A DNA stretch of 64,000 bases, taken from Candidatus Latescibacterota bacterium. Its GTDB lineage: Bacteria > Latescibacterota > UBA2968 > GCA-2709665. Location of the stretch: assembly GCA_965248435.1 (NCBI GenBank), contig OZ252100.1:2176001-2240000 (forward strand), read 5' to 3'. Of the stretch, positions 16,096-56,157 are shown piece by piece (position 1 is the stretch's first letter; every line of letters starts with the position of its first letter). Position numbers and translations under genes: made by a program. The notes below the pieces were generated by a model. That model ran no database searches and was not told where the DNA came from. It was given only the letters and a program-made list of their open reading frames with translations.

Positions 16096-17418
16096 GGTTC
16101 ATCACCGATTTCCGGGGAAGGCGTGGCGGATTCTAAGAAAGAAATAATTATCATCCCTGAAGCCATATGCCATCCGCTTGATGACCTTGATTTTGTTGTT
16201 AATTCCCTCAATCAGGCTTGTCCCGATGGGATAGTCACAGTGAGCTAGGATTCCTGGCATATACGTCTTCAGATTGCGTGCGAATTTCTTGAGTGGCTCG
16301 ATCTTGCTGTAGATGGCGCGTCGATACCACTGATTCCAGAATCTGTTGGCCGCAGCTCTGGATCGATAAGACCAGAGATGATTGAGATCCTCTTTGAGGA
16401 GGTATACCGTGTAGAGGCGTTTGTTTGCAGAAAGCAATTCTCTTAGCGACACTCTGTCTTCTTTGCTCGTGACATTTGCTTTGCTGCGCAGGAGCAACCA
16501 CCGTTGGTTCTGAGTCACTTTGCGATCGGGTCGGCCACCGCGCACCCGACCCAGTTCGTCGATGCGTACTCGCTCGACGACGTCGCGGTTGTACTTGGCT
16601 TTAACGTGATACAGGTCATAGATGATGTCCACATCCGGACAATGGGATCGCACCTCCTCTTCGTAGGCACCGTTCATGTCCATCGCCACGGCCTCAAGTT
16701 GCTTGCAGCCTTCTTCTCCAAGGAGGTGGAAAAACGGGCGGATGTCCTCTCGACTTCGGCCGCGACCCACCCATAGGACACGCTTGGTCTCCATGTCAAC
16801 AATCACTGTGGCGTAGCGATGGCCCTTTTGGATCGCAAATTCGTCCATGCCGATCACCGTGACCCTGGCAAAATCCGGCGGTTCCAGCTCTTGCTGGAGA
16901 TGGGTCTTGTGAATGCGCTTCACGGTATTCCAGCTCATCCCATAGGTGCTGTGCCACGTGCTGGATGGGCAGGACTTCGCACAATCGAACAACACTTTCA
17001 GCCAGGCGTTGAGTGACCCGTGAATACCGATCCAGCCAGTCAATCTGCTCCGTCCGGCAGCCACATCGGGGACATAGGACGCGCCGGGAGTGCACGATCA
17101 GCCTGGTTCGAGACCCCCAGATCGGCAAATCCTGAGCAAATCGCACTGCCCAATCATGAACCCGGTACGCCTTCTTCCCGCAACCACCACACCGAGGAAG
17201 GCGGCCTGTCTTGGGACGTAACTCGACTCCAACAACGTCTGCTTCCTGACGTTGAATGCCAACTACCACAAACCCTTGCCACCTACCCAGTAAGGATATA
17301 CTTTGCACCTGAGACAACGCGCTCTCCTTTCTACCTTCAGGTTTATAGAGGATACTCTGAAGATAGGTCGGATGCCGTTGTCTCGTCTATTTTCTACCCC
17401 AACATTTGACGAAGAACC
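16096..17418 (-). mobile_element. ISL3 family insertion sequence, 1323 bp
   Basis: Imperfect terminal IRs GGTTCATCACCGATTTCCGGGG / GGTTCTTCGTCAAATGTTGGGG; AT-rich flanks TTTAGCAA and TTTACAAA; lower GC. Confidence 0.92.
16102..17317 (-). pseudogene. ISL3 transposase, frameshifted
   Basis: N-terminal zinc finger (CGGC...CPRC) in one frame; DDE part (IGMDEFA, VAMDM, YDLYH, IEGINNKIKVIKRMAYGFR) in another; one extra base near 16945. Confidence 0.85.
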
Positions 17419-26941: not shown

Positions 26942-27742
26942 TCAGGCCTCTGCAAACGACCCCACCTGTGGGATCCTGTTGATCAATCCAAGCTCGAATG
27001 CATATTCGTAGAAAAGTCGGAGCCCTTCCCGTTCTCGTTCTCCAACGTCATAACTGATGCGACGCGTCAGGTAGGCTTCATAGAATTCCGATGAGTAGAG
27101 ATTGGACGCCGCCCACACCCTGGCGATCTCGGGGATCATTCCCACGCCCAGTGCTTTCGCCTCGGTCAGCCACTTCACCTCATCGGGCCCCGCAGAACCT
27201 GACCTCCCAGTCCAGCAGGCGTAAACGAACGGAAGCCCCGTGAGTTCCGACCACGCCTCACCCAGATCGAGCAAGCGATACTTACGTGGATCCAGCCCAA
27301 GGGCCGAGTCACCGATCAGGAGTGCGGCATCGCTTCTGTCCAGCATCTGTTTCAAGTCGGGAGGACTCTCAAAGACTTCGGGTCGATGCCCGTAGACCTT
27401 GTCGAAGACGATCTGGCAAAGCGCGGAGGAGGCCCGAGAGTTGGCGTCCAGTGCCAGGGTTCGAACCTCGGCTGGGTCCTTCTTCAGCACCAGGACAACA
27501 CTTTGCACCGGACCGAATGAAGCGATTCCGATGCCCGGAACCATGTTGTACGACTCGCGGGCGCGACCGATTTCAATCGAGGGGATCAGGGCGATATCTG
27601 TCTCGCCTCGATGAAGACGCTCTGCACAGCTGGAAGGGACATCGTAGATGAGGTCGAACGAATGGGAGACGTCACCCGACTCGAGGGCGTGCACTAGAGG
27701 CCGGGTGTTGAGGAAGGAGACGACGCCGAGACGCGGGGGCAT
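26942..27742 (-). CDS. mqnA: Chorismate dehydratase (futalosine pathway)
   Basis: VSFLNTRP, LLIGDSAL, DLGEAWSELTGLPFVYACW; adjacent to mqnC/mqnE. Confidence 0.92.
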   Translation of the reverse strand: MPPRLGVVSFLNTRPLVHALESGDVSHSFDLIYDVPSSCAERLHRGETDIALIPSIEIGRARESYNMVPGIGIASFGPVQSVVLVLKKDPAEVRTLALDANSRASSALCQIVFDKVYGHRPEVFESPPDLKQMLDRSDAALLIGDSALGLDPRKYRLLDLGEAWSELTGLPFVYACWTGRSGSAGPDEVKWLTEAKALGVGMIPEIARVWAASNLYSSEFYEAYLTRRISYDVGEREREGLRLFYEYAFELGLINRIPQVGSFAEA

Positions 27743-27752
27743 CCGGAGGCCT

Positions 27753-28853
27753 TTAGTTCAGCAGCTCGTAGCGGGTGTTCCTCCGAACCGGTTCATACCC
27801 GGCATCCCGGATGAGGCGCTGCATTTCCGGCAGCGTCATCTCGTTCGTATGACTCGTCCCGGCCGCGCTCACGACGTTCTCTTCCATCATTGTGCTGCCG
27901 AAGTCATTCACGCCATACCGCAGGGAGACCTGTGCGATCTTCGCGCCCTGAGTGACCCAGGAGGCCTGGATGCTCGGGATGTTGTCGAGGAAGATCCGGG
28001 AGACCGCGATCGTCCGGAGATAATCATAGCCCGTGGCCTTCCGCCCGTTCCAGCGACCGGGATCGGCGCCCAGATCGGTCTGGTCGGGCTGGAAGTTCCA
28101 GGCGATAAACGCCGTCATCCCGTCCGTCTCGTCCTGCAGGTCGCGAACCAGCTCGAGGTGCTCCATCCGCTGCTCTATGCTCTCGACGTGACCGTACATC
28201 ATCGTCGCGGTCGTGTGCAGGCCCAACTTGTGGGCGATTCGGTGAACGTCCAGCCACTCGTGAACCCGATCCTTGCGGAACCCGATGATATCACGGACTT
28301 CGTCGGAAAGAATCTCAGCACCGGCACCCGGGATCGAGTCCAGGCCCGCATCCCGCAGGCGCCCGATGCAGTCTTCCAGGGTCAGTTTCGAGATATGGGC
28401 GATGTAAACGATCTCCGTGGCAGACAGACAGTGCTGATGGACCTGGGGATATCGCTCTCGAATGGAGGCGTGCAGGTCTTCATAGTAGTCGATCTTCAGC
28501 TTGGGATTCAGGCCTCCCTGCATGAGAATCTCATTCGACTTCGGGGAATCGCCGCCGACTGCCACCATCTCATCGATCTTTTCGAAGATCTCCTCCATCG
28601 GCAGCACATACCCTTCCTCGGAACCGGGAGGACGATAAAACGCACAGAAATCGCACCGAACCCAGCAGACGTTCGTGTAGTTAATATTCCGCCCGATGTT
28701 GTAGGTCACCGAATCGTGCTGGTGTTTTCGCTCGCGAACCCGATCGGCGAGGCCTCCGAGTTCGGTCAGGTTCGGGTGCGCCATGAGTCTCAGTCCCTCC
28801 TCGACCGAGATCCGCTCCCCGTTTTGCACTTTTTCTGAGATGTCGTCGATCAT
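27753..28853 (-). CDS. mqnC: Cyclic dehypoxanthinyl futalosine synthase (radical SAM)
   Basis: RNINYTNVCWVRCDFCAF, LMQGG, IQASWVTQG, DFGSTMMEENVV; start placed at MIDDIS. Confidence 0.92.
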   Translation of the reverse strand: MIDDISEKVQNGERISVEEGLRLMAHPNLTELGGLADRVRERKHQHDSVTYNIGRNINYTNVCWVRCDFCAFYRPPGSEEGYVLPMEEIFEKIDEMVAVGGDSPKSNEILMQGGLNPKLKIDYYEDLHASIRERYPQVHQHCLSATEIVYIAHISKLTLEDCIGRLRDAGLDSIPGAGAEILSDEVRDIIGFRKDRVHEWLDVHRIAHKLGLHTTATMMYGHVESIEQRMEHLELVRDLQDETDGMTAFIAWNFQPDQTDLGADPGRWNGRKATGYDYLRTIAVSRIFLDNIPSIQASWVTQGAKIAQVSLRYGVNDFGSTMMEENVVSAAGTSHTNEMTLPEMQRLIRDAGYEPVRRNTRYELLN

Positions 28854-28878
28854 CACGTTCGCCTTCGCGCGTGACCCA

Positions 28879-30033
28879 TCAGGAAAGGACCGGAAGTTCG
28901 CCCGGTATCCCGACCGGCTCCGCCTCTTCAATTTCACGCTCCGTGGAAAGCACTCGATAAAGGTTGTCTCGCTCAACCGGGTCCCGGCCGGCCTCAACGA
29001 CCCGTTCCACGAGTTCCTTTCGGGTCAACACCTGACGCGTCTGCTCGTAGCTCGGCCGCGTGATCTCGTACTCCTGGATCGTCCCGTCAATGTCGTCCGC
29101 GCCGTACCAGAGCGCGACCTGAGAGATTTCGATCGTGTTCATGATCCAGAACGTCTTGATATGCGGAAAATTATCCAGCATCAGTCGCCCGACAGCGATC
29201 TCTCTCAGGTCCGCCATGCCGCTCGGTCCCGGGATGTGCTCGATTTCTGTCCGTTCCGGATGGAAAGAAAGTGGAATATAGGTCAGGAACCCCTCGGTTT
29301 CGTCCTGCAGCGCCCGAAGTGCCACCAGGTGTTCCACCTTCTCCTTGGGATTCTCGATGTGGCCGTAGAGCATCGTCGCGTTCGTGGGCAGTCCGACTTC
29401 ATGAGCCGTTCTGGCCACCTCCAGCCATTCCTCCGAATCCGACTTGGTCCAGAAAAGATCGTCCCTTACCCTGTCGCTGAAGACCTCGGCGCCCCCGCCG
29501 GGGATCGATGAGACCCCGGCCTCCTTCAGCTCCAGCATCACTTCTCTGAGTGGCTTCTTCGCCGCCTTTGCGATCTGTACCCATTCGATCGCCGTGAACG
29601 CCTTGACAGCAACATTAGGCCGGACCTGCTTCACTGCCTGCACGATGTCCAAATAGTATGAATAGGGAAGTTTTGGATTTACTCCTGCGACCATGTGGAC
29701 TTCTGCGATCGGAATGTGGAGGTAGGGTTCGAGTCGCGCCTTGATATCCTCCGGAGAAAGGACATAGCCTCGCGCGTCCTTTGGCGGTACATAGAAAGAG
29801 CAGAACTTGCAGAGCTTGTTGCAAACATTCGTGTAATTGATGTGCTGGTTCCTGACGTACCACGCCACGTTGCCGTTCTTTCGTTCCCGGGCGAGGTTCG
29901 CCATACGGCCGACCGCGTTGAGGTCCGGGTCGGCGTAGAGGCGCATCCCGTCCTCTGTGGACAGGCGAGTCCCGGCCTCAACCTTTTTGTAGATCTCTTG
30001 AAGCGCGTCAGGGATGTTCAGCGGCATTGACAT
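28879..30033 (-). CDS. mqnE: Aminofutalosine synthase (radical SAM)
   Basis: HINYTNVCNKLCKFCSF, VKAFTAIE, MLDNFPHIKTFW, GADDIDGT. Confidence 0.92.
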   Translation of the reverse strand: MSMPLNIPDALQEIYKKVEAGTRLSTEDGMRLYADPDLNAVGRMANLARERKNGNVAWYVRNQHINYTNVCNKLCKFCSFYVPPKDARGYVLSPEDIKARLEPYLHIPIAEVHMVAGVNPKLPYSYYLDIVQAVKQVRPNVAVKAFTAIEWVQIAKAAKKPLREVMLELKEAGVSSIPGGGAEVFSDRVRDDLFWTKSDSEEWLEVARTAHEVGLPTNATMLYGHIENPKEKVEHLVALRALQDETEGFLTYIPLSFHPERTEIEHIPGPSGMADLREIAVGRLMLDNFPHIKTFWIMNTIEISQVALWYGADDIDGTIQEYEITRPSYEQTRQVLTRKELVERVVEAGRDPVERDNLYRVLSTEREIEEAEPVGIPGELPVLS

Positions 30034-30035
30034 CC

Positions 30036-30425
30036 TCACTCTCCGAGCGCTTGCGGGCGAAAGATGAGCTGAAGGATGTTCCCCTCTGGATCGGGGAAAA
30101 AGTCCATCTGCGTTCCATCGGGCAGGTCGACCTTCGGTCCGGCGAACGCGATCCCCCGCTCGGCCAGGTTTTGATAAACAGCGTCGAAGTCTTCTACGGT
30201 CAGGGCGATGTGCCGGATTCCAGCGTCGCGTGCATCCTGATCCGTTCGACTCGCCTTGTTCGAAGGCAGGATTTCCAGGACGCCGCCGCCGGACAGGCCG
30301 ATAAAATAGGTCTGGGAATCCTTCCTGGATTCGACCATCTCAAACCTGAGCGTCCCGCAGTACCACTCGGCGAGTGCTTTTGGGTCATCCGCCACGACAG
30401 CCACGTGTTCAATCGACTGAATCAA
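30036..30425 (-). CDS. VOC (glyoxalase-like) family protein
   Basis: IEHVAV...LEIL...GIRHIAL...DPEGNILQL. Confidence 0.9.
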   Translation of the reverse strand: MIQSIEHVAVVADDPKALAEWYCGTLRFEMVESRKDSQTYFIGLSGGGVLEILPSNKASRTDQDARDAGIRHIALTVEDFDAVYQNLAERGIAFAGPKVDLPDGTQMDFFPDPEGNILQLIFRPQALGE

Positions 30426-42943: not shown

Positions 42944-43750
42944 TCAGCCCTCCAGCACGTAGAAGGTCTCTCCGGGATAAGCCATCTTCCGAACCCCTAC
43001 TCGGAGCTCGGCCAGGATCCCCTTCATCACGGACTCATAGTAGGATTCCATACCTTTCTCCCGCCCCCCGAGGCTTTGTGCAGGGAAGGACACGACGACG
43101 ATTTCAGATTCCAGCCGTTTGAGCAAGTCAAGTCCGCTCCCCTTCTTCTGCTGCTCGAGAATCGGGATCGTCTTGAGGAGCAGAACCATATCGGATCCCG
43201 GGTCGGGGCATCCTGTCAGAATATCTCCGCACTTCACCCTGGCAGGCTGGCCCATTCGCCCAAAAAAACGATCGATCAGGGAGGTCAGTCTTTCGTCTAC
43301 GTCAACCGCGATGTACTCCGTCGACCGCTTCAGGGCCATCCAGGGCAGTGCAAACGGGTTTAAACCACAGGCCAGGTCGAGAAGCGTAGCGGGGATTCCG
43401 ACCATTCGAAAGAGTGCAGGATAAAAATCGGCAAGAATGGGCAGGCGTTCTGCAGTGGACGCGTGGCATTTGAGGATTTCAGAGCAGGTCTGCTCGAGGT
43501 GTGATTCGGACACATCACCCTCAAGACCCTCGACGAGCTCTGCAGCCCGGGTAAGATCGGCCTGATCCAGATAAGCCCCATAGACCTGGTGAAGCTTCCG
43601 CTTTGCGGCCTTCGTGGCGGCCTTCAGCGAGGGATGCCGCGACTGTGCCCACTCGGCCACGCGATAAAGCGCGTCTTCGCACAGGTACTGATACTTCTTC
43701 GTCTGCTTTAGGTGATCTACGATTTCTTTGCGGAGGTCGCTCGCCGTCAT
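42944..43750 (-). CDS. 16S rRNA (guanine(1405)-N7)-methyltransferase, ArmA/Rmt/Sgm/FmrO family
   Basis: KRKLHQVYGAY, HASTAERLP, DLACGLNPF, LLLKTIPILEQQ, VVSFPAQSLGGREKGM. Confidence 0.9.
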   Translation of the reverse strand: MTASDLRKEIVDHLKQTKKYQYLCEDALYRVAEWAQSRHPSLKAATKAAKRKLHQVYGAYLDQADLTRAAELVEGLEGDVSESHLEQTCSEILKCHASTAERLPILADFYPALFRMVGIPATLLDLACGLNPFALPWMALKRSTEYIAVDVDERLTSLIDRFFGRMGQPARVKCGDILTGCPDPGSDMVLLLKTIPILEQQKKGSGLDLLKRLESEIVVVSFPAQSLGGREKGMESYYESVMKGILAELRVGVRKMAYPGETFYVLEG

Positions 43751-48540: not shown

Positions 48541-48620
48541 GGCTTTAACCTCAGGCGTGCGTGCACTATATCGTTTATTTTCAACGTGTTATTCAAAAAC
48601 ACCCGATTCACATTAAGAAC

Positions 48621-48649
48621 TTGACCAATGAACGAATGTGCACTATATT
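48621..48649 (+). promoter_or_regulatory. sigma70-type promoter of the sigma factor gene
   Basis: TTGACC-17 bp-TATATT. Confidence 0.65.
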
Positions 48650-48707
48650 TCAGAAGCTACAGAGGAAACCTCAGTCACAAAAGTTCTTGTTCATGGAGGA
48701 GCGACTC

Positions 48708-49556
48708 GTGAGATCTTCTCGCCCGTTCACAGAAGAAAAATCCCTGGAATACTACTATCGCGAGGTCGATCGTCATCCGCCCATTACTGCAGAGGATGAA
48801 AGGGCCCTGGCCATCCGCATCGAACTCGGTGACGAGACCGCCCTGGACAAACTCGTAAAGGCCAACCTCCGGTTTGTCATCCACGTGGCCAAAGACTTTC
48901 AGAACCTGGGCCTTTCCATGGCCGACCTGATCAATGAAGGCAATTTGGGGTTGGTCACCGCTGCTCGCAAATTTGACCGTCGCAAAGGATGCAAGTTTAT
49001 CACCTACGCCGTGTGGTGGATTCGACAAAACATCCTCAATGCCCTGGAGGTCCAGACGCGCACGATCAGGGTCCCGGCCAACATTCTCAACGACATAAAC
49101 AAGCTGCGCAAGGCCAGCTCCCGCCTCGCCCAGAGTCTCGAACGAGATCCCACGGCGCAGGAGGTCGCAGACGAGGTCGAGTGCAGTGCGGAAAAAGTGG
49201 CCTACACGATGGCAGCAGACCCGAGCACCATCTCCCTGGACACCCCTCTCTACGAGGATATGGATGTAAGCCTCGAGGAATCCCTGCCGGACAGCAATGC
49301 ACCACTTCCGGATGAAGTCGCCATCAATAAATCGATGAGAACAGATGTTGACACGGTTTTCAGCAGTCTTTCAGAGCGCCACAGAAAGGTGCTCTCCCTC
49401 TGTTTTGGGCTCAACGGACATTTGCCCTCAACCTACCATCAGATCGGGACGCAACTCGGCGTGAGTCGAGAACGCGTTCGCCAGCTCAAAGAAGACGCGC
49501 TCAGAAAACTGAGGCAGCCCGCCCTCTGTAAACGCCTTTCGGCCTACGTCGAGTAA
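48708..49556 (+). CDS. RNA polymerase sigma factor, RpoD/SigA/RpoS family, lacking region 1.1
   Basis: ANLRFVIHVAK, DLINEGNLGL, KFITYAVWWIRQ, VSRERVRQ; GTG start behind GGAGGAG. Confidence 0.93.
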   Translation: MRSSRPFTEEKSLEYYYREVDRHPPITAEDERALAIRIELGDETALDKLVKANLRFVIHVAKDFQNLGLSMADLINEGNLGLVTAARKFDRRKGCKFITYAVWWIRQNILNALEVQTRTIRVPANILNDINKLRKASSRLAQSLERDPTAQEVADEVECSAEKVAYTMAADPSTISLDTPLYEDMDVSLEESLPDSNAPLPDEVAINKSMRTDVDTVFSSLSERHRKVLSLCFGLNGHLPSTYHQIGTQLGVSRERVRQLKEDALRKLRQPALCKRLSAYVE

Positions 49557-49714
49557 CGTCTCCCAACCTCCAATTCCTCTCGCTTTTGGTAGCTCACTGC
49601 ACCCCACTGTGCCATCCGCTCCATCTTCTTCTTATCCTTGACACGATGGGCTAGAATACCCCTATTTACACTACCTTCCCGCGTTATCTACGATCGCATC
49701 TTTAGGACCATAAA

Positions 49715-50473
49715 ATGAAGATCATCCTGCTGACGGTGATCGGTGCCCTCATCCTGTTGTGGGCTGGGGTTCTTGCGCTCCTCAAATGGGTGCACCCCAT
49801 CCTCAAACGCCACGTCCTCTGGCTCGGCGTCTACGCGAGTGTCCTCAGCGGCCTGCTCATCTACCTCGTCATCCAGACCTCAATCACACAACAAGATGCA
49901 GCCCTCGTAAAGACCCGAGCGCGGCTCAACCACGAACTGGAAACATTCCGGGAAAAGTTGAACGATCTTACGAACCGACTCATGGGCCAGATCGTAGAGA
50001 AGGCGGAGCTCACGGAGTCCGAGTGGAAAGTCAGAGGCGACCTTCAGACCGAGCGGAGCCAGCACACACGAGCTCGGGAAGACCTGGCCGGTGCGCGCGA
50101 TCAGCTCACCGATACTCAGAGCGAGCTGATAAAGGAAGCCGCTTCTCACAAAGCTTATCTAGACAGCCTGAATACCGAGCGAGCGCTCCACAGGGCCACG
50201 CGGGTGAGTCTCCAAAAAGAGGAGCAGAAAAAGGCTGACACCCGTCACAATCTCGATTCGACTCGAGAGGAACTTGCAAGAGTGCGTGAACGCCTCGCGC
50301 TCAAAGAGTCGGAGATCGAACGCCTCCGCGTCGACCTTAAACGAACAACGCAATCGTTGAATGATCTGAAACTGGCTCGGAGCGAAATGCGCCAGCAGAC
50401 AGAAGCCCTCGGCCTTCTGCAGGCCTCCCTGGATTCGATCTTTCTGAAGGTCCTCAAACGCCCTCGAAATTGA
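49715..50473 (+). CDS. Hypothetical protein, two N-terminal TM helices plus a long coiled coil
   Basis: Two hydrophobic segments followed by ~190 aa of heptad pattern. Confidence 0.8.
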   Translation: MKIILLTVIGALILLWAGVLALLKWVHPILKRHVLWLGVYASVLSGLLIYLVIQTSITQQDAALVKTRARLNHELETFREKLNDLTNRLMGQIVEKAELTESEWKVRGDLQTERSQHTRAREDLAGARDQLTDTQSELIKEAASHKAYLDSLNTERALHRATRVSLQKEEQKKADTRHNLDSTREELARVRERLALKESEIERLRVDLKRTTQSLNDLKLARSEMRQQTEALGLLQASLDSIFLKVLKRPRN

Positions 50474-50637
50474 AGAAATTTAGCTTGCCGAGCGCGACCG
50501 TCGAGCGTAAGTTAAAATGACCCCACGGTCCCACCTATCCGCGTTCTCCCCTGCCTGACGAACTCGAACGGTCCCCACACTGAATTGAAGGACCGCCATA
50601 CTCTTGAATCTGAGATCGATCGCACCTGGAGGTGTTC

Positions 50638-51504
50638 GTGACCCGCGATAGCGAAGCATCTGGAGACACTCAGAAAATCATTCTTATCATCGGTGTGGTC
50701 GCCGTCGTACTGGCCGTACTGCTCCTTGTCGCCTTTCTCCCGAAAGAGCCGGAAATCGATCCCCACGTCGTTGAACTGGAACAGCAGGTTTCTGGTTACA
50801 CGACACAGATCGATTCGCTCAATGCGGTTGTGGACGGGCTGAATGGACGGCTAGATGGAATTCGGTCTCAGATGGACAGCGTAAGGGCCTCGAATCGTAC
50901 CCTTCTGGCCTCTTTGCATCGGGTGACGAACGAGTTGAAGGAGTACCGGCGTCTTTACAGGGAGCAGCAGACGCTCAACAGGAAACTGGCTCAAGAACTC
51001 AGACAGGTGCGGGTGGAGAAAGAAAGGGCCATCACCGAGGCTGAAGGACTCAAATCGGAAGTGGACAGCCTGAACAACGCACTCTACGAAAAGACGGTAC
51101 GCCTGGTCCGTCTCGAGGCCAGCCTTGAGCAGGCGGTCAAACAGACCGAGTCTTTAGAGGCGGCCGTCCGTGCAGTACTGGTGTATTCGGGAACCGAGGA
51201 CGAGCTCAAGCAGGCGGGCTATCTTAAAACGGGAAGGTCCGTCATCTTCAAGAAGAGTTACCGTGCAATCGGCTTCCCGGACGTCGTGAATGGCGAAACC
51301 GGTGGAGCGGTATTCAGGACCTCACTGGGAGAACCGCTCGTGCTCCAGGGTACGCTTTCGGCCCTGGCCGACCGACACGGGAAGCTGGGAAAAGGAAAGG
51401 AATATAGGCTACAAAAAGGACCGCCTGGCCAGACGGTCGTCACGTTTATCGACTCCACCCTGCAGGGACAGCGTATTCTGGCCATCCTAAAAAAATCTAA
51501 ATAG
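50638..51504 (+). CDS. Hypothetical protein, single TM, coiled coil and C-terminal globular domain
   Basis: GGAGGT then GTG; hydrophobic IILIIGVVAVVLAVLLLVAFL; heptads; C-terminal domain begins YSGTEDELKQAGYL. Confidence 0.8.
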   Translation: MTRDSEASGDTQKIILIIGVVAVVLAVLLLVAFLPKEPEIDPHVVELEQQVSGYTTQIDSLNAVVDGLNGRLDGIRSQMDSVRASNRTLLASLHRVTNELKEYRRLYREQQTLNRKLAQELRQVRVEKERAITEAEGLKSEVDSLNNALYEKTVRLVRLEASLEQAVKQTESLEAAVRAVLVYSGTEDELKQAGYLKTGRSVIFKKSYRAIGFPDVVNGETGGAVFRTSLGEPLVLQGTLSALADRHGKLGKGKEYRLQKGPPGQTVVTFIDSTLQGQRILAILKKSK

Positions 51505-51546
51505 TCAGCCTCTACGCGCCACTCATCAAAGTCCCCCACCACCGCC

Positions 51547-51954
51547 TCACCACATATGAACGAACACTGCGGGCCGAACTTTTGCGCCGCTCGGTGCGAC
51601 GGAGAGCAGCGAATCCGCGTATGCGGCGTCGTTCACGATCTGCTCTCGGCCCCCCCCTTTCAGGAACAGATGCAGGTTCCGGTCAGGCTGCGTCACCAGG
51701 TCTGAAACAACCCTCCGAAACTCGCCGACTTTCATCAGGCGTGCCACCGACCTTCCATCTGGAGATAGGCCGCGTCCCCTGGACGTGTAAACTACGACCA
51801 CGTCTCCGGTCTCGGGATCGTGATGGTGAACCCGCCAAACAGGTTGCGATACGTTCAGGATCAGAATTCCCAGGGTCAACATCAGCATCATGATCCCCAG
51901 AAAGAGCTCCTTGCTCACATCGTGCTCTTCAACGTCTGCGTGAACGCGTCGCAT
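51547..51954 (-). CDS. Small single-TM protein, ExbD/TolR-like topology
   Basis: Short acidic N-terminus, TM (ELFLGIMMLMLTLGILILNV), ~95-aa alpha/beta domain; directly follows the ExbB-like gene. Confidence 0.6.
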   Translation of the reverse strand: MRRVHADVEEHDVSKELFLGIMMLMLTLGILILNVSQPVWRVHHHDPETGDVVVVYTSRGRGLSPDGRSVARLMKVGEFRRVVSDLVTQPDRNLHLFLKGGGREQIVNDAAYADSLLSVAPSGAKVRPAVFVHMW

Positions 51955-51962
51955 GAATGATC

Positions 51963-52766
51963 TCACGGAAACTCTCTCCCATCCAGCACCCGATCTCTCA
52001 ACTCTACCCAAGACCGCTCAAGCGCCGCGATCCTACCGAGGAGCGAATCGAAGACCTTTCGAAGCGGCAGATACGCGAGCAGGGCCACCAAAGTCGTCTG
52101 AAACGCGAGCACAAGCCCTCCTGCCATATCGCGCAATACCTGAAACGTCTCGGTCGCCTCATCCAGTCGCGTCAACTCCTGAGCGACGATCAAAATGCCA
52201 CATACGGTTCCCAGGTAACCATAAAATGGAATCCTGCTCAAGGCTCGCTGTCCGTTTAGAAGCGGCTCTCCGAATACGTTCACCAGTTCCTCGACCGACT
52301 CGTCATCCCGTAGTTTCAATTCTGAATACAGATCGCTTTTCCCCTTCAGATCTTCAAGGCTGGCCCGCCTCTGCAATGAAAGCGTGGCCCTTTGAGGTCC
52401 CTTCCCGGTGTTCTGAACATCCCGCTCTTCTGCCTCGAGCCGTATCCAAACGTGAATCAGAACGATCAGGTGTCCGGCTGAAGCTGCCGCGACGAGGACA
52501 TAGGAGGAGCGCCCGATCCATTCCACGAAGCTGGCGCTGTTCGTGGCAAACAGGTAGTAATAGATCGCAATCGACGCGATAACCAGTCCTGCGACCGCGC
52601 CGACCAACGCACTCATCAGTGTAGAACTCGTTGGAGCCAGATTGAACCGGTTCTCCTCCTGCAGAATCCGCTCCATTTTCAACATCAAGACCCTTGCGCC
52701 GGCCATCGCGGCCACGGCTGCAAAGACCGAGGCTGAGAGCATCTCCAACCACGTAATCTTTCCCAC
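51963..52766 (-). CDS. MotA/TolQ/ExbB proton channel family protein with extra N-terminal TMs
   Basis: IPFYGYLGTVCGI and LAFQTTLVAL signature helices; GTG start overlapping the upstream stop. Confidence 0.8.
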   Translation of the reverse strand: MGKITWLEMLSASVFAAVAAMAGARVLMLKMERILQEENRFNLAPTSSTLMSALVGAVAGLVIASIAIYYYLFATNSASFVEWIGRSSYVLVAAASAGHLIVLIHVWIRLEAEERDVQNTGKGPQRATLSLQRRASLEDLKGKSDLYSELKLRDDESVEELVNVFGEPLLNGQRALSRIPFYGYLGTVCGILIVAQELTRLDEATETFQVLRDMAGGLVLAFQTTLVALLAYLPLRKVFDSLLGRIAALERSWVELRDRVLDGREFP

Positions 52767-54031
52767 TAAGACCTCATCAAATCTTGACGGTGGCTCAAAA
52801 ATCCGTAGGTGACGTATATGGCAAGGATCGCGGTCGGGATCCAGAGGCCGTTCCTCGACCGGCGCTTGCCCGTCCACGATCCACCCGCACCGAATGCGGC
52901 GCTTCCGTCGGGTTGGCCTCTTCCGGTTCTACCCTTCAGCCCTTCTTCCGATCGTCCACGCCCGGAGGATCTTTCACGGGAGCCGCTCCCCAGTTCCTTT
53001 GGAGGCCGGTAGGCAGCCTGCCGGTCCCCAACCGCTTCGCCGACGGCTGAGAGTGGATATGACGGGTTCGCTTCGCCCTCGCCCTTTAACGCGCGAGCCT
53101 GCGGGAAAAGAAGCTCCGCTACCCTTTCAGGAAGCCGCCTCGACCAGGCCAGCACCTGCTCCGCCACCGGTGTCGTCGCCCATTCCCGGAGTGGGCCCGC
53201 ACGGCCAAGCGTCAGGCTGAGGGACTTGCCTTCCCGGCCTGAGTAGACAGGGTAGTCCAGCTTGTCGGATCTCCGATCCGCCAGCATGCCGCCGAGTTCC
53301 ACACGCCTTTTCTGCAGGTGCGTCAAGGACCTGAGAAACGTGTCGTACTCCATGGTTTGATTCACCGAGCGCGGCGGTCGCTCCTCTCGGATCGCACCTT
53401 CAGACAGAGCTCGTGTTATTTCGCCGATTTCGAAGGTGCGTTCCATTTCAACCGTCCCGAACAGGTTGCCTCCCCAGATGACGGTCGCGTCCGGGATGTC
53501 CGGCACGGGATGCGCATAGGCGATCTCCCGAGCCTGGGCACCTTCAGCCCGCCACGCCTGATCCGAGACCAGTACTCGAAACAGCCGACCTTCCGCGTCT
53601 TTAAGATACAACCCGCAGAGAAACCCGCTCTCAATCCAGTTTGTGTCCCAGCATCGAACGCGAATCCGGTTCTGATGCCTCAGATAGAGCTCAGGGATCT
53701 TCACCTCCAAAGGGGTAAGGCGCGTTTCCCCTACCGGATAGTCGTTAATCCAAACGCGTGCCTCGTCGTCCGCCCAGAAGATCAACGAGAGAGACATCCC
53801 CTGAGGGATCATCCCACTCCGCTCACCCTCTGGAAGTCGCGCTGCCTCCGCGGCGTCGGGGTCCACCGCCTCCATCGCCCGCACCAGGCTGTCAATCTCA
53901 GCAGAAACAGCGTTATACTCCCATCGGAGAGAGAGTCGATCATCGGCGGCCCTGGCATCAGCCGTAGACACGACAGCGCAGATGAGTCCCCAATAAACAG
54001 CCTTTAGGCCAAACAACCCGTTATCCTTCAT
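52766..54031 (-). CDS. Secreted, C-terminally anchored protein with a lectin/galactose-binding-like domain
   Basis: Signal peptide ending ADARA; ADDEARVWIND...IRVRCWD...GFLCGL...VSDQAWRA beta pattern; G/R/S-rich linker; C-terminal TM. Confidence 0.65.
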   Translation of the reverse strand: MKDNGLFGLKAVYWGLICAVVSTADARAADDRLSLRWEYNAVSAEIDSLVRAMEAVDPDAAEAARLPEGERSGMIPQGMSLSLIFWADDEARVWINDYPVGETRLTPLEVKIPELYLRHQNRIRVRCWDTNWIESGFLCGLYLKDAEGRLFRVLVSDQAWRAEGAQAREIAYAHPVPDIPDATVIWGGNLFGTVEMERTFEIGEITRALSEGAIREERPPRSVNQTMEYDTFLRSLTHLQKRRVELGGMLADRRSDKLDYPVYSGREGKSLSLTLGRAGPLREWATTPVAEQVLAWSRRLPERVAELLFPQARALKGEGEANPSYPLSAVGEAVGDRQAAYRPPKELGSGSRERSSGRGRSEEGLKGRTGRGQPDGSAAFGAGGSWTGKRRSRNGLWIPTAILAIYVTYGFLSHRQDLMRS

Positions 54032-54878
54032 CTTCCCGCACACCTTTGAGGATCTTCGCGAGCGGATCTGCGAACGAGATCTGGCTGTCGTCTTCGGGTG
54101 CATACCCGATCATCTTCCGGGCATTGGCGAGGCTCCAGAATCGGTGTGTATTTCCGCTGATTCCGTAGAAGATCTGGAACGGTACCCCGTTCTCATCTTC
54201 TATGTTTTCCGTTTCAATGCTCTTGATGACCAGCTGCTGCTGGTCCCGCACGCTCAGATATGCGCCAAGTTCACGGTGGAGTTTCTTCAGATCGGGTGGG
54301 CCGTCCCCTTCGTTTATGATGGTCTCGCGAGGCGCTCCGATACGGAGCTGCACGTTCTCCAATTTCCTGCCGCCGCTAACCCTGCCGGTCGCGAAGGCAA
54401 AACCCAGGTGTTCGTAGGACGCTTTCGCCCAACCGTAGAGATTGTCCGAAAGCGGGCGCATATCGGGGGTCACAAACTCCATCCGGTCCGTCCAGATCAA
54501 CCGTTCGTAGAAATCCGCCGCGTGATTTGAGCTGAATATCACGGCCCGCCTCACGCCCTCTTCGACGCAGACGTGATAGACATTGTAAGCCATCGTCACG
54601 TTTCCGACCTCGGCCGAAAAGTAGCCATCGACGTCCGATCGGTCTGTGCGGATGAACGCACAGTGGACCACGGCGTCCGCGCCCCGGAAGTATTCCCGGT
54701 ATGCATCCCGGTCGCGGCTCAGAAGATCGGTCACTACGACCCCATCCACCTCCTCCCCATCCCGGTTCTTCGACTGAACGTCGAGCAGGACCAGATCGTA
54801 GCGCTCGCGGAAGACCGGCAGCATTCGGCCGGACAGGTAGCCCGCTGCGCCTGTTAGTACGACCTTGCGTTTCGGCAT
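54021..54878 (-). CDS. NAD-dependent epimerase/dehydratase (uronate dehydrogenase-like)
   Basis: TGAAGYLS, SSNHAAD, YGWAK, LRIG, YGISGN. Confidence 0.85.
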   Translation of the reverse strand: MPKRKVVLTGAAGYLSGRMLPVFRERYDLVLLDVQSKNRDGEEVDGVVVTDLLSRDRDAYREYFRGADAVVHCAFIRTDRSDVDGYFSAEVGNVTMAYNVYHVCVEEGVRRAVIFSSNHAADFYERLIWTDRMEFVTPDMRPLSDNLYGWAKASYEHLGFAFATGRVSGGRKLENVQLRIGAPRETIINEGDGPPDLKKLHRELGAYLSVRDQQQLVIKSIETENIEDENGVPFQIFYGISGNTHRFWSLANARKMIGYAPEDDSQISFADPLAKILKGVREDEG

Positions 54879-55065
54879 GGAGCATTCCTTTCCGTTTCTT
54901 CACCATGCGAAGGATAACTTGAGCCCTTCCGTCATCCTTCAGCGGCCAAGGTGATCAAGAATGCGGCAGACCACGGACGACGGACCGCCTAAATCTAGGA
55001 GCTGTTCATCTCGTGGTCCACAGTCCGTCGTCTGCTCCCAGCTTATTTCTAGGTCACAGCAGTGG

Positions 55066-56157
55066 TCAGGCCTTCTCCATCAAGTAGCCCGCGGTTCCAG
55101 AAGGAGACGCGCTGACCGGCTTATGAATCGTGACTCGGCGACCCTCCTGAACGCCATCCTCATAGGCACGCGTCACTCGCACCCCGCCGCTATATCGCGT
55201 CTCCACCCTCGGGTTCAGGTGGCGATAGAATGCCTTCAGTTTTGAGTCTCCCTTCCACACAAGTGCGTGTGTCTCCTGGAGGAATGTCTCCTGCTCTTGA
55301 AGTTTTCCATGAAACCCTTCAAGCACACCCGCGAAGTAGCGCTGGCGCTCACGGTTTGACGCCACATCATTCGATGCCCGGTAGTCTTCCCATAGCCTGC
55401 AAAGCAGGTGTGAGAGATATGAGTAAACGTATTCGGCCATCTCCAGGTTCGAAGACGTTCCGTAGATTTGGAGCACCGACCCGATTCGATCTCTGATCGG
55501 GTCGTAGCTCTGGGCCCAGATGACTTCGACGAAGAAGAAATCGCCCAATATCGTGGCCAGCCAGAGTTCTGCCGCAGTGTGTCGCCCCTTCACCTCTCCC
55601 AGGCACCGCGTCTCGAAGGCTCGCTCCTCATCCAGTTCCAGCAAATCCAGGTTGTACTTTGCCAGGAGATATCTCGCCTTCTTGACGGCCGTCTGAGCTT
55701 CGTGCTCATTCGGACTGTTGGCCAGGGAAAGCAGTTTTTTGAGCAGCCGCAGAACCTTCCCTTCATCCGCTCCGCCTGGTGGATTTCTCAGGGCTTCAGC
55801 CTTTGTCTCAGCACGTGGGCTGCAGCGAAGCCGCTTGCACGCCTCTTTGAAGGCCGACCCGTGAGGCGGTTCTCCGTCCGCTTTCAGGACTTCCGACACA
55901 TACTGGTGAGCCATCTCGTGGCGAAGGGTCTCCATCACGGACAGCCACGGATCTTGTTTGATGTGTGACTCGGAGATCGCCAGGGTCCTCCGGGTCTCAT
56001 TCCAGTGCCCCAACTCTACCACTCCCTGACTCACGCGGAAATGCGGACGTCTCATTGCACTGGAAATGTATTCTTCATTATAATGTTCCCACCAAAAGGA
56101 CAGCTTTCGGGTCCAGACCTTCCGCAATTCCAGGTATAGTTGTTCTCCCTTCTTCAT
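55066..56157 (-). CDS. SprT-like zinc metalloprotease / DUF2786 domain protein
   Basis: LRHEMAHQY plus HG..F; LKKLLSLANSPNEHEAQTA. Confidence 0.85.
   Translation of the reverse strand: MKKGEQLYLELRKVWTRKLSFWWEHYNEEYISSAMRRPHFRVSQGVVELGHWNETRRTLAISESHIKQDPWLSVMETLRHEMAHQYVSEVLKADGEPPHGSAFKEACKRLRCSPRAETKAEALRNPPGGADEGKVLRLLKKLLSLANSPNEHEAQTAVKKARYLLAKYNLDLLELDEERAFETRCLGEVKGRHTAAELWLATILGDFFFVEVIWAQSYDPIRDRIGSVLQIYGTSSNLEMAEYVYSYLSHLLCRLWEDYRASNDVASNRERQRYFAGVLEGFHGKLQEQETFLQETHALVWKGDSKLKAFYRHLNPRVETRYSGGVRVTRAYEDGVQEGRRVTIHKPVSASPSGTAGYLMEKA

Follow-up and report, generated by a model that had tools for sequence, protein, structure and literature searches.

A divergent MotA/TolQ/ExbB-family gene module of Latescibacterota as a candidate ion-driven membrane motor with unusual partners

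Gene arrangement and co-inheritance

We analyzed a 64,000-nucleotide (nt) stretch of genomic DNA from a Candidatus Latescibacterota bacterium (GenBank assembly GCA_965248435.1, contig OZ252100.1, positions 2,176,001 to 2,240,000 of the forward strand), hereafter called the window, within which all positions given below are counted. An annotation made by a model from the letters and open reading frames (ORFs), here termed the sequence-only reading, had described four tightly packed minus-strand genes at 51547-54878 and proposed that they encode an unclassified ion motor coupled to a lectin-like protein. The described packing is borne out by the ORF coordinates and junctions. The four main ORFs all lie on the minus strand and extend over 54021-54878, 52766-54103, 51963-52877, and 51547-52011, and the likely starts are position 54031 for the lectin-like gene, a GTG at 52766 for the MotA-like gene, and an ATG at 51954 for the small gene. 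With these starts, the epimerase and lectin-like genes overlap by 11 nt, the lectin-like and MotA-like genes share 1 nt in a TAG/GTG junction, and a spacer of 8 nt separates the MotA-like gene from the small gene. We consider these ORFs to be real genes because each has dozens of homologues of matching length, with conserved columns over 62 to 66 sequences. The three genes of central interest, in which lengths are given in amino acids (aa) and TM stands for transmembrane, are as follows:

51963..52766, minus strand: ring (A) subunit, a divergent MotA/TolQ/ExbB-family channel protein of 267 aa with Pfam PF01618 and five hydrophobic segments
51547..51954, minus strand: putative B (axle) subunit, an orphan single-pass protein of 135 aa with an invariant HDxSKE motif and one TM segment
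52766..54031, minus strand: lectin-like partner of 421 aa with a predicted beta-sandwich, a tether, and a C-terminal TM helix

The conservation of this neighborhood was assessed by scanning genomes with the ring-protein alignment, which yielded 67 loci in which the partner genes were placed by tblastn. These loci carry the labels Latescibacterota, Gemmatimonadota/Gemmatimonadetes (including Gemmatimonadaceae), or simply 'bacterium'. The small gene directly follows the ring gene in 66 of the 67, the lone miss being at a contig edge, and in 63 the lectin-like gene immediately precedes the ring gene, the other four having no upstream DNA. The three-gene set is thus present at every one of the 67 loci with enough DNA, and the neighborhood check suggested by the sequence-only reading finds ring, small, and lectin-like genes kept together. 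The ring-protein family, in a maximum-likelihood tree of 63 rows with a midpoint root, splits into the half that contains the window and a deep half. In a quick tree of the lectin-like protein that deep group reappears, as does a clade of 18 rows from the ring-protein tree, with support of 100. Because both trees recover the same two major groups with full support, the genes have traveled together, and all three members of the set are co-inherited.

Scans for regulatory signals over positions 49400-55300 were uninformative, with three promoter-like sites where 1.4 were expected and seven terminator-like sites where 5.1 were expected. One of the latter, a minus-strand hairpin with a T-run at 51438-51419, lies about 110 nt beyond the stop of the small gene and within the 3' end of the convergent gene cc290 (see below); the scan overall is at chance level.

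Properties of the encoded proteins

On sequence grounds, the ring protein is a genuine but distant member of the MotA/TolQ/ExbB family. It matches Pfam MotA_ExbB (PF01618) over residues 215-287 of the 304-aa ORF, with an E value of 9.6e-6 and a score of 25.8 bits that exceeds the cut-off of 22.9, and precomputed annotation assigns PF01618 to 102 of 120 homologues among the matches listed. In public records, members of the family go by 'MotA/TolQ/ExbB proton channel family protein' and also by 'biopolymer transport protein ExbB/TolQ'. The NCBIfam equivalog models score at 18.9 bits for TolQ (TIGR02796, cut-off 221) and 18.4 bits for ExbB (TIGR02805, cut-off 135). The two motifs on which the sequence-only reading had based its assignment of signature helices, PFYGYLGTVCG and AFQTTLVAL, are present and largely invariant across 63 family members; together with the above-cut-off PF01618 match they uphold that assignment.

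When a 26-member profile of the ring protein was compared with the solved structures in the PDB, TolQ (8odt_A) matched over the last two TM segments with an E value of 0.036 and ExbB followed at 0.55, with no MotA, PomA, GldL, or ZorA chain at E<=1. The alignment with TM2-TM3 of TolQ retains P, G, GTV, GI, T, and P. Residues T187 and T225 align with TolQ Thr145 and Thr178, P234 occupies the position of TolQ Pro187, and all three are invariant in 63/63 sequences. The pore-lining threonines Thr145/Thr178 of TolQ, which correspond to Thr148/Thr181 of ExbB, are listed as essential in a 2026 review (PMC12905483). Conservation is highest across TM4, the following loop, and TM5 (0.82-0.92 of sequences share the window residue) and lowest in TM1 and TM2 (~0.4).

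The membrane topology departs from that of TolQ and ExbB, which have one hydrophobic segment ahead of the cytoplasmic stretch. A Kyte-Doolittle scan of the ring protein reveals segments at 9-27, 50-68, 90-108, and 217-235, and the TolQ alignment adds a TM segment at 178-200. The ring protein therefore appears to have five membrane segments, and the three at its N terminus, in line with the approximate number given by the sequence-only reading, are separated from the TolQ-like TM pair by a polar, cytoplasmic stretch of ~65 aa. An apparent fusion of ring and axle genes at one related locus (L009) was rejected, as a TAG stands between the two genes.

The small protein has a sole hydrophobic segment at residues 17-35 by Kyte-Doolittle analysis. 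Its best-conserved part is residues 11-41 (mean identity 0.92), wherein H11, D12, S14, K15, and E16, which form the HDxSKE motif at the cytoplasmic end of the TM helix, are invariant in 66/66 sequences. Much of the TM helix, N34, P38, V39, W40, R41, and the C-terminal H133 and W135 are likewise invariant. It had been noted earlier that the acidic residues ahead of the TM of this partner do not match the usual PxxD motif; no ExbD, TolR, or MotB model fits the protein. The search proposed at the time for an invariant Asp or Glu in the alignment of the small subunit returns both D12 and E16, albeit at or before the membrane edge. The small protein has no match in Pfam, NCBIfam, or PADLOC, and no Pfam family is found in 22/22 members at E<=10. 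The predicted model, with a predicted local distance difference test (pLDDT) score of 78, shows a long N-terminal helix followed by a beta-beta-alpha-beta-alpha-beta periplasmic domain. For this model, Foldseek ranks the TolR periplasmic domain (5by4) second, and although its probability of 0.66 is the highest of any match, the signal is weak (E value 0.18; target TM-score 0.46). The small protein looks like an axle subunit by its position, its topology, and its conservation pattern. Moreover, its residues 11-41 and the TM4-loop-TM5 region of the ring protein both peak in conservation, and so the parts that would be in contact in a 5:2 motor match in this respect.

The lectin-like protein is predicted to comprise, in order, an N-terminal helix with a signal-like segment, a conserved helix, a beta-sandwich at residues 80-201, a helical region (helices at 203-252 and 283-308), a tether, and a TM helix. 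The overall model has a pLDDT of 71 and a predicted template modeling score (pTM) of 0.61, the beta-sandwich being confident with blocks near 90. Cleavage of the signal peptide is predicted. The tether (328-392) is a Gly/Arg/Glu-rich region of 65 residues with low-confidence, disordered character, and the predicted TM helix (397-420) has a pLDDT of ~90. A C-terminal hydrophobic segment with a mid-helix Tyr or Trp ends 62/62 aligned sequences. Two invariant sets stand out, namely an acidic cluster in the beta-sandwich (W86-x-D88-D89-E90-A91, plus D129-T130) and R337/Y341/P344 within the tether. The residues W86, D88, D89, and E90 with D129 and T130 could form a putative ligand site.

The fold of this protein points weakly toward carbohydrate-associated domains. 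The Foldseek matches in the PDB, all below significance, are a Streptomyces alpha-L-rhamnosidase (3w5n, E value 0.012, probability 0.98), a Pleurotus lectin (probability 0.84), and beta-glucuronidases, and the Atlas leads are clusters of rhamnosidase N-terminal domains at 0.78-0.79, which is under the 0.9 line. The rhamnosidase N-terminal domain to which these leads point is a CBM67-like, carbohydrate-binding beta-sandwich. A total of 129 homologues were found; among the matches listed, none of 120 carries a Pfam domain, and all are named 'hypothetical protein' bar one automatic 'YgcG' label. Because the fold matches fall below significance and no Pfam family is found, the term 'lectin-like' is a lead only.

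Two further genes had been left out of the earlier description of the gene set. These genes, cc252 and cc290, converge on the module from the plus strand and are adjacent to it in 47 of the 67 loci (cc290 in 44, cc252 in 46, one or both in 47). They are listed here with the two other neighbors that enter the discussion below:

50632..51504, plus strand: cc290, a coiled-coil convergent neighbor with generic coiled-coil matches and an N-terminal anchor
49715..50473, plus strand: cc252, a coiled-coil convergent neighbor with two N-terminal hydrophobic segments followed by a coiled coil
54021..54878, minus strand: NAD-dependent epimerase/dehydrogenase-family gene, an adjacent passenger (Pfam Epimerase, 2.7e-9)
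48561..49556, plus strand: sigma-70-family factor upstream of cc252 (Pfam Sigma70 r1.2, r2, r3, r4)

On the ring-protein tree, loci with the coiled-coil pair as neighbors occur on either side of the midpoint root; the pair is missing next door in the 18-row clade (support 99/96) and in one other row. The cc290 protein consists of an N-terminal membrane anchor, a coiled coil of ~130 aa, and a conserved C-terminal domain of ~100 aa. Its anchor type varies: the window's half has a TM segment (16-34 by Kyte-Doolittle in the window), whereas in the deep half a signal of the lipoprotein type, L[SA]CG, takes its place, with the lipobox in 9/19 aligned rows (loci L043, L046, L049-L051, L053, L055, L059, and L060). 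Pfam and PDB profile searches with cc290 return generic coiled-coil matches only, including a weak DUF3450 match (E value 0.006) that is no better than the rest, the Atlas search yields nothing at 0.9, and its 95 homologues have hypothetical or generic names. In cc252, Kyte-Doolittle segments at 3-30 and 35-57 precede a long coiled coil that has a conserved block E95...H117 and an invariant D240. For a TolA-like or tether role, these two proteins are candidates just as good as the lectin-like protein.

A helix motif of the form hydrophobic-Asp-Ser-hydrophobic is common to the lectin-like protein (53891-53902, residues 44-47 region), cc290 (50809-50820), and cc252 (50429-50440). The lectin-like D47 is invariant (n = 62), as are D61 and S62 of cc290 (I60-L63; n = 43) and D240 of cc252, in which S241 is present in 45/47 sequences (L239-I242). 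This shared motif of the three periplasmic partners may be coiled-coil chance or a common docking element.

A possible membrane motor and its alternatives

Ion motors of the ring-and-axle type are at work in flagella, nutrient import, envelope division, gliding, and phage defense. The absence of TonB/TolA, TonB-dependent receptors, OmpA-domain MotB, and flagellar genes near the module, as claimed by the sequence-only reading, stands both in the window and in 14 sampled loci. Specifically, Pfam searches of 48 further window ORFs (E<=1e-5) gave no domain of the TonB, TolA, TolB, Plug/receptor, OmpA, or flagellar kind, no TonB, TolA, receptor, OmpA, or flagellar domain among eight module-region proteins, and no Ton, Tol, OmpA, or flagellar domain in 124 flanking ORFs of 14 related loci (E<=1e-6), one of which (L046) has an end-cut CarboxypepD_reg protein 6 kb from the module. 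PADLOC, applied to seven proteins, gave no Zorya match and only a weak Csx1 model (E value 0.023). Our literature search on MotA/TolQ/ExbB relatives and on Latescibacteria motors found no description of the module, and Latescibacteria are mentioned in neither PMC12204202 nor PMC12505986. The latter, a classification of MotAB relatives, includes many 'generic ion transporter' motors of unknown function.

On balance, we lean toward the view that the locus encodes a Latescibacterota-specific, TolQ/ExbB-type ion-driven membrane motor with new partners. This reading is based on retention of both channel threonines, strict three-gene synteny, coupled translation signals, co-inheritance, and the lack of Ton/Tol partners nearby. 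The ring protein would form the outer ring and the 135-aa small protein the inner axle, with the ion being taken up by E16 at the edge of the membrane helix or by D12 one turn earlier. The C-terminal membrane helix of the 421-aa protein might dock on the rim of the ring or on the extra N-terminal helix pair, and its long disordered tether would give the beta-sandwich access to the cell wall or outer membrane, where it would bind a ligand, possibly a glycan. The motor would then pull or move the lectin-like protein, akin to the driving of TonB and TolA, and cc252 and cc290 probably belong to the same envelope-spanning assembly. That the lectin-like protein may serve as force transducer or sensor, as first suggested by the sequence-only reading, is a proposal founded on gene order and co-inheritance alone.

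The module resembles TolQ-TolR and ExbB-ExbD in several respects. The ring protein has the MotA_ExbB domain, with its last two TM segments aligned and both threonines and the helix-ending proline kept; behind it lies the gene for a small, single-pass protein that has conserved carboxylates and a predicted alpha/beta periplasmic domain; and a third component is encoded just upstream of the ring gene. This matches the gene order tonB-exbB-exbD of some bacteria. In contrast to TolQ and ExbB, the ring protein has three segments before the cytoplasmic stretch, and five in total rather than three, falls far under the equivalog cut-offs, and carries Leu at the Glu173 position. The small protein differs from ExbD and TolR in having no sequence similarity to them and in its membrane-edge Glu with an Asp one turn earlier. 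Unlike in Ton and Tol systems, no TonB or TolA is nearby, and the lectin-like protein is anchored C-terminally, with a beta-sandwich in place of a TonB-type C-terminal domain. It resembles the TonB and TolA transducers only in its long disordered tether and has no TonB_C or TolA Pfam match.

Parallels also exist outside the classical systems. A recent survey (PMC12204202) proposes, from synteny and models, vWA-domain proteins as non-TonB transducers beside TolQ-like motors, and concludes that further such transducer systems remain to be found. In those cases, as described there, a periplasmic protein that is tethered to the membrane and combines a disordered linker with a globular domain of binding type is likewise encoded beside a TolQ-like motor gene, and TPR genes co-occur in some lineages. 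The module differs from them in its beta-sandwich, its C-terminal anchor without SHLS, its orphan small subunit, and its phylum. The Vibrio TonB2 systems with TtpB (DUF3450), TtpC, and TtpD (PMC6957404) also combine an ExbB-family motor with extra envelope proteins that include a coiled-coil periplasmic one; however, they keep ExbB, ExbD, and TonB and serve TonB-dependent receptors, none of which is recognizable here. GldLM/PorLM, AglRQS, and ZorAB belong to the same broad ion-driven ring-and-axle class with nonflagellar uses, but none of them matches the ring-protein profile among solved structures at E<=1, and PADLOC reports no Zorya match. The TM counts and partner architectures of GldLM/PorLM, AglRQS, and ZorAB differ from those of the module.

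Several observations weigh against the motor reading. Known axle subunits carry their membrane-helix carboxylate inside the TM segment (ExbD Asp25, TolR Asp23), whereas the small protein has its carboxylates at the boundary of the hydrophobic segment or ahead of it, the closer of the two being a Glu rather than an Asp. Likewise, the position of TolQ Glu173 is an invariant Leu throughout the ring-protein family. No sequence kinship of the small protein with ExbD, TolR, or MotB emerged, as its profile finds no PDB sequence match at E<=10, and Foldseek gives nothing at E<=0.001 (best E value, 0.16). When 1.84 billion representatives were searched exhaustively with an HMMER profile, 12 small-protein matches came back at E<=0.001, of which 10 are the family itself or its fragments; the other two (P0251 and P0252) are spurious because they are ankyrin and ARM/HEAT repeat proteins, which leaves no true relative outside the family in that set. 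As for the lectin-like protein, its signal-like segment and C-terminal TM helix agree with what the sequence-only reading had described, whereas the lectin label itself is weakly supported, with no Foldseek match in the PDB at E<=0.001 and no Pfam family in 23/23 members at E<=10. Moreover, the protein is C-terminally anchored and no SHLS-type motif was seen by eye in any partner, for which reasons the known docking mode of TonB and TolA cannot be assumed. The putative ring-and-axle assembly is read from sequence rather than from an oligomer or ring-protein model, and nothing ties the module, which comes from uncultured organisms, to a phenotype. Note that a complex prediction run at 4:2 rather than 5:2 (four copies of ring residues 76-267 with two of small-protein residues 1-60; score 0.04, mark 0.32) counts neither for nor against the assembly.

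The main rival, which we regard as unlikely, holds that the module acts in envelope integrity or division rather than ligand capture, as a divergent analogue of Tol-Pal in function. The ring and small proteins would then stand for TolQR, cc252 with its membrane anchor and long helix for TolA, cc290 for an outer-membrane tether such as Pal or CpoB, the lectin-like protein for TolB, and a tetratricopeptide repeat (TPR) protein for CpoB, so that the parts list matches in kind. The gene for this last protein, a secreted TPR_19-like product of ~350 aa, sits immediately upstream of the lectin-like gene in 13 deep-branching loci but does not occur in the window. The adjacency of the coiled-coil pair in 47/67 loci on both sides of the midpoint root, the cc290 lipobox in the deep half, and the standing of TolQ as the best family match among solved structures all favor the same analogy. 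However, none of the partners resembles TolA, TolB, Pal, or CpoB in sequence, or significantly in fold, there is no OmpA-like peptidoglycan-binding domain, and the coiled-coil genes are convergent, lie outside the operon, and in 19 loci do not adjoin the module. Alternatively, the tethered beta-sandwich might act as a sensor or gate that detects a periplasmic or wall-derived ligand and controls ion flow, with signaling, for example to the neighboring sigma factor, as the output in place of mechanical work. The invariant acidic cluster would suit a putative ligand site, and the sigma-70-family gene is a conserved neighbor in the window's half, where tblastn places it beside cc252 in 27 of the 67 loci. 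This proposal nonetheless seems improbable to us, given that the short cytoplasmic stretch of the ring protein, ~65 residues, has no recognizable output domain, that the sigma-factor gene is one of the convergent genes and does not neighbor the module in deep-half loci, and that the flanks showed neither an anti-sigma nor a kinase domain.

It is also conceivable that the genes encode an ordinary Ton (or Tol) energizer whose TonB and receptors are encoded elsewhere, the lectin-like and coiled-coil genes being unrelated. The ExbB/TolQ-type public names of the ring-protein family would fit, TonB and motor genes are not always neighbors in bacteria (PMC12204202), and Latescibacteria single-cell genomes are reported to encode TonB, ExbB, ExbD, and Plug-domain proteins, as well as flagella (PMC4454575). 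Because these genomes are reported to have ordinary TonB/ExbB/ExbD and flagella elsewhere, the module is probably an additional motor. An ordinary energizer is quite improbable in view of the ring protein, which reaches 18-19 bits against cut-offs of 221 and 135 and differs in TM count, and of the small partner, which is not ExbD by any sequence test. Nor would unrelated status be expected of a lectin-like gene that overlaps the ring gene by 1 nt, is present wherever upstream DNA reaches, and has a tree congruent with that of the ring protein. Finally, there is a very slim chance that the module is a Zorya-like anti-phage defense motor, an option also named by the sequence-only reading and prompted by the MotAB-like channel that Zorya uses. 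The three module proteins have no PADLOC Zorya match, no nuclease/helicase or ZorC/D-type partners were seen in the flanks, and the stable chromosomal neighborhood and vertical inheritance are unlike typical defense islands. Among the examined loci of the 18-row clade that has no adjacent coiled-coil pair, an AAA_21 ATPase neighbor occurs only in L016.

The original proposal of an unclassified motor fares reasonably well. Its observations were largely right, and the motor interpretation is reasonable, with its central point unproven. The divergent ring protein far under the TolQ and ExbB cut-offs, the unmatched small partner, the lack of any PADLOC or Zorya match, and a lectin-like gene that is always upstream all agree with it, but the inclusion of the epimerase does not. 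A bolder form of the favored motor reading, which we consider rather unlikely to hold in full, would make the module a new proton-driven envelope machine confined to Latescibacterota, with a five-helix TolQ-like ring, an orphan axle with a juxtamembrane Glu/Asp pair, a tail-anchored glycan-binding arm moved by way of its C-terminal helix, and two periplasm-spanning coiled-coil proteins, one of them an outer-membrane lipoprotein, that handles surface or captured polysaccharide or replaces Tol-Pal. The module is conserved throughout an uncultured phylum, the Latescibacteria, which are thought to degrade algal polysaccharides (PMC4454575).

The interest of the module lies in its orphan axle, five-segment ring protein, tail-anchored partner, and conserved coiled-coil pair: the engine is recognizable, but the axle and three periplasmic partners have no known relatives. 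Each new output of such motors has shown more about the re-use of one engine. If the motor does drive a tail-anchored beta-sandwich protein, this would represent both a new docking geometry, through a C-terminal anchor, and a new load. If the module instead replaces Tol-Pal, it would bear on how the outer membrane is held in the Fibrobacteres-Chlorobi-Bacteroidetes (FCB) lineages, in which tol-pal has proved difficult to locate. Given their small size, the proteins could be expressed in E. coli, and so the question can be tested without culturing the host.

Other genes around the module

The epimerase gene was counted as part of the unit by the sequence-only reading. Its identity as an NAD-dependent sugar epimerase/dehydrogenase agrees with the Pfam match; however, its membership does not hold, because it is directly adjacent to the lectin-like gene only in the window and at one other locus (L003). 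An enolase-superfamily (MR_MLE) gene intervenes between the two in most loci, as at all six loci examined from the window's half (L001, L016, L038, L005, L011, and L041), and the genes upstream of the lectin-like gene in the examined deep-half loci L043, L046, L049, L050, L055, and L062 encode a Na/Ca exchanger and a short-chain dehydrogenase. Just upstream of the epimerase gene, 55066-56157 (minus strand) encodes a SprT-like, DUF2786, DUF7168 protein that is a neighbor in several related loci too.

Examples of the TPR_19-like gene are found at L046:4748-5824, L049:4536-5588, and L062:4611-5741, with 10 more loci making up the set. A large DUF6785/DUF6784 membrane protein is encoded 3-5 kb downstream of the module in 3/14 loci (L041:12681-14678, L046:10940-12874, and L062:12572-14545).

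Elsewhere in the window, an ISL3-family transposase gene (16102-17064, minus strand; Pfam DDE_Tnp_ISL3, 4.4e-66) lies amid metabolic genes, and a gene for an FmrO-family ribosomal RNA methyltransferase (42944-43750, minus strand; Pfam 2.6e-50) adjoins tgt and thrS. A VitK2_biosynth gene and two radical-SAM CofH/MqnC-type genes at 26942-30039 (minus strand) resemble a futalosine-route menaquinone cluster.

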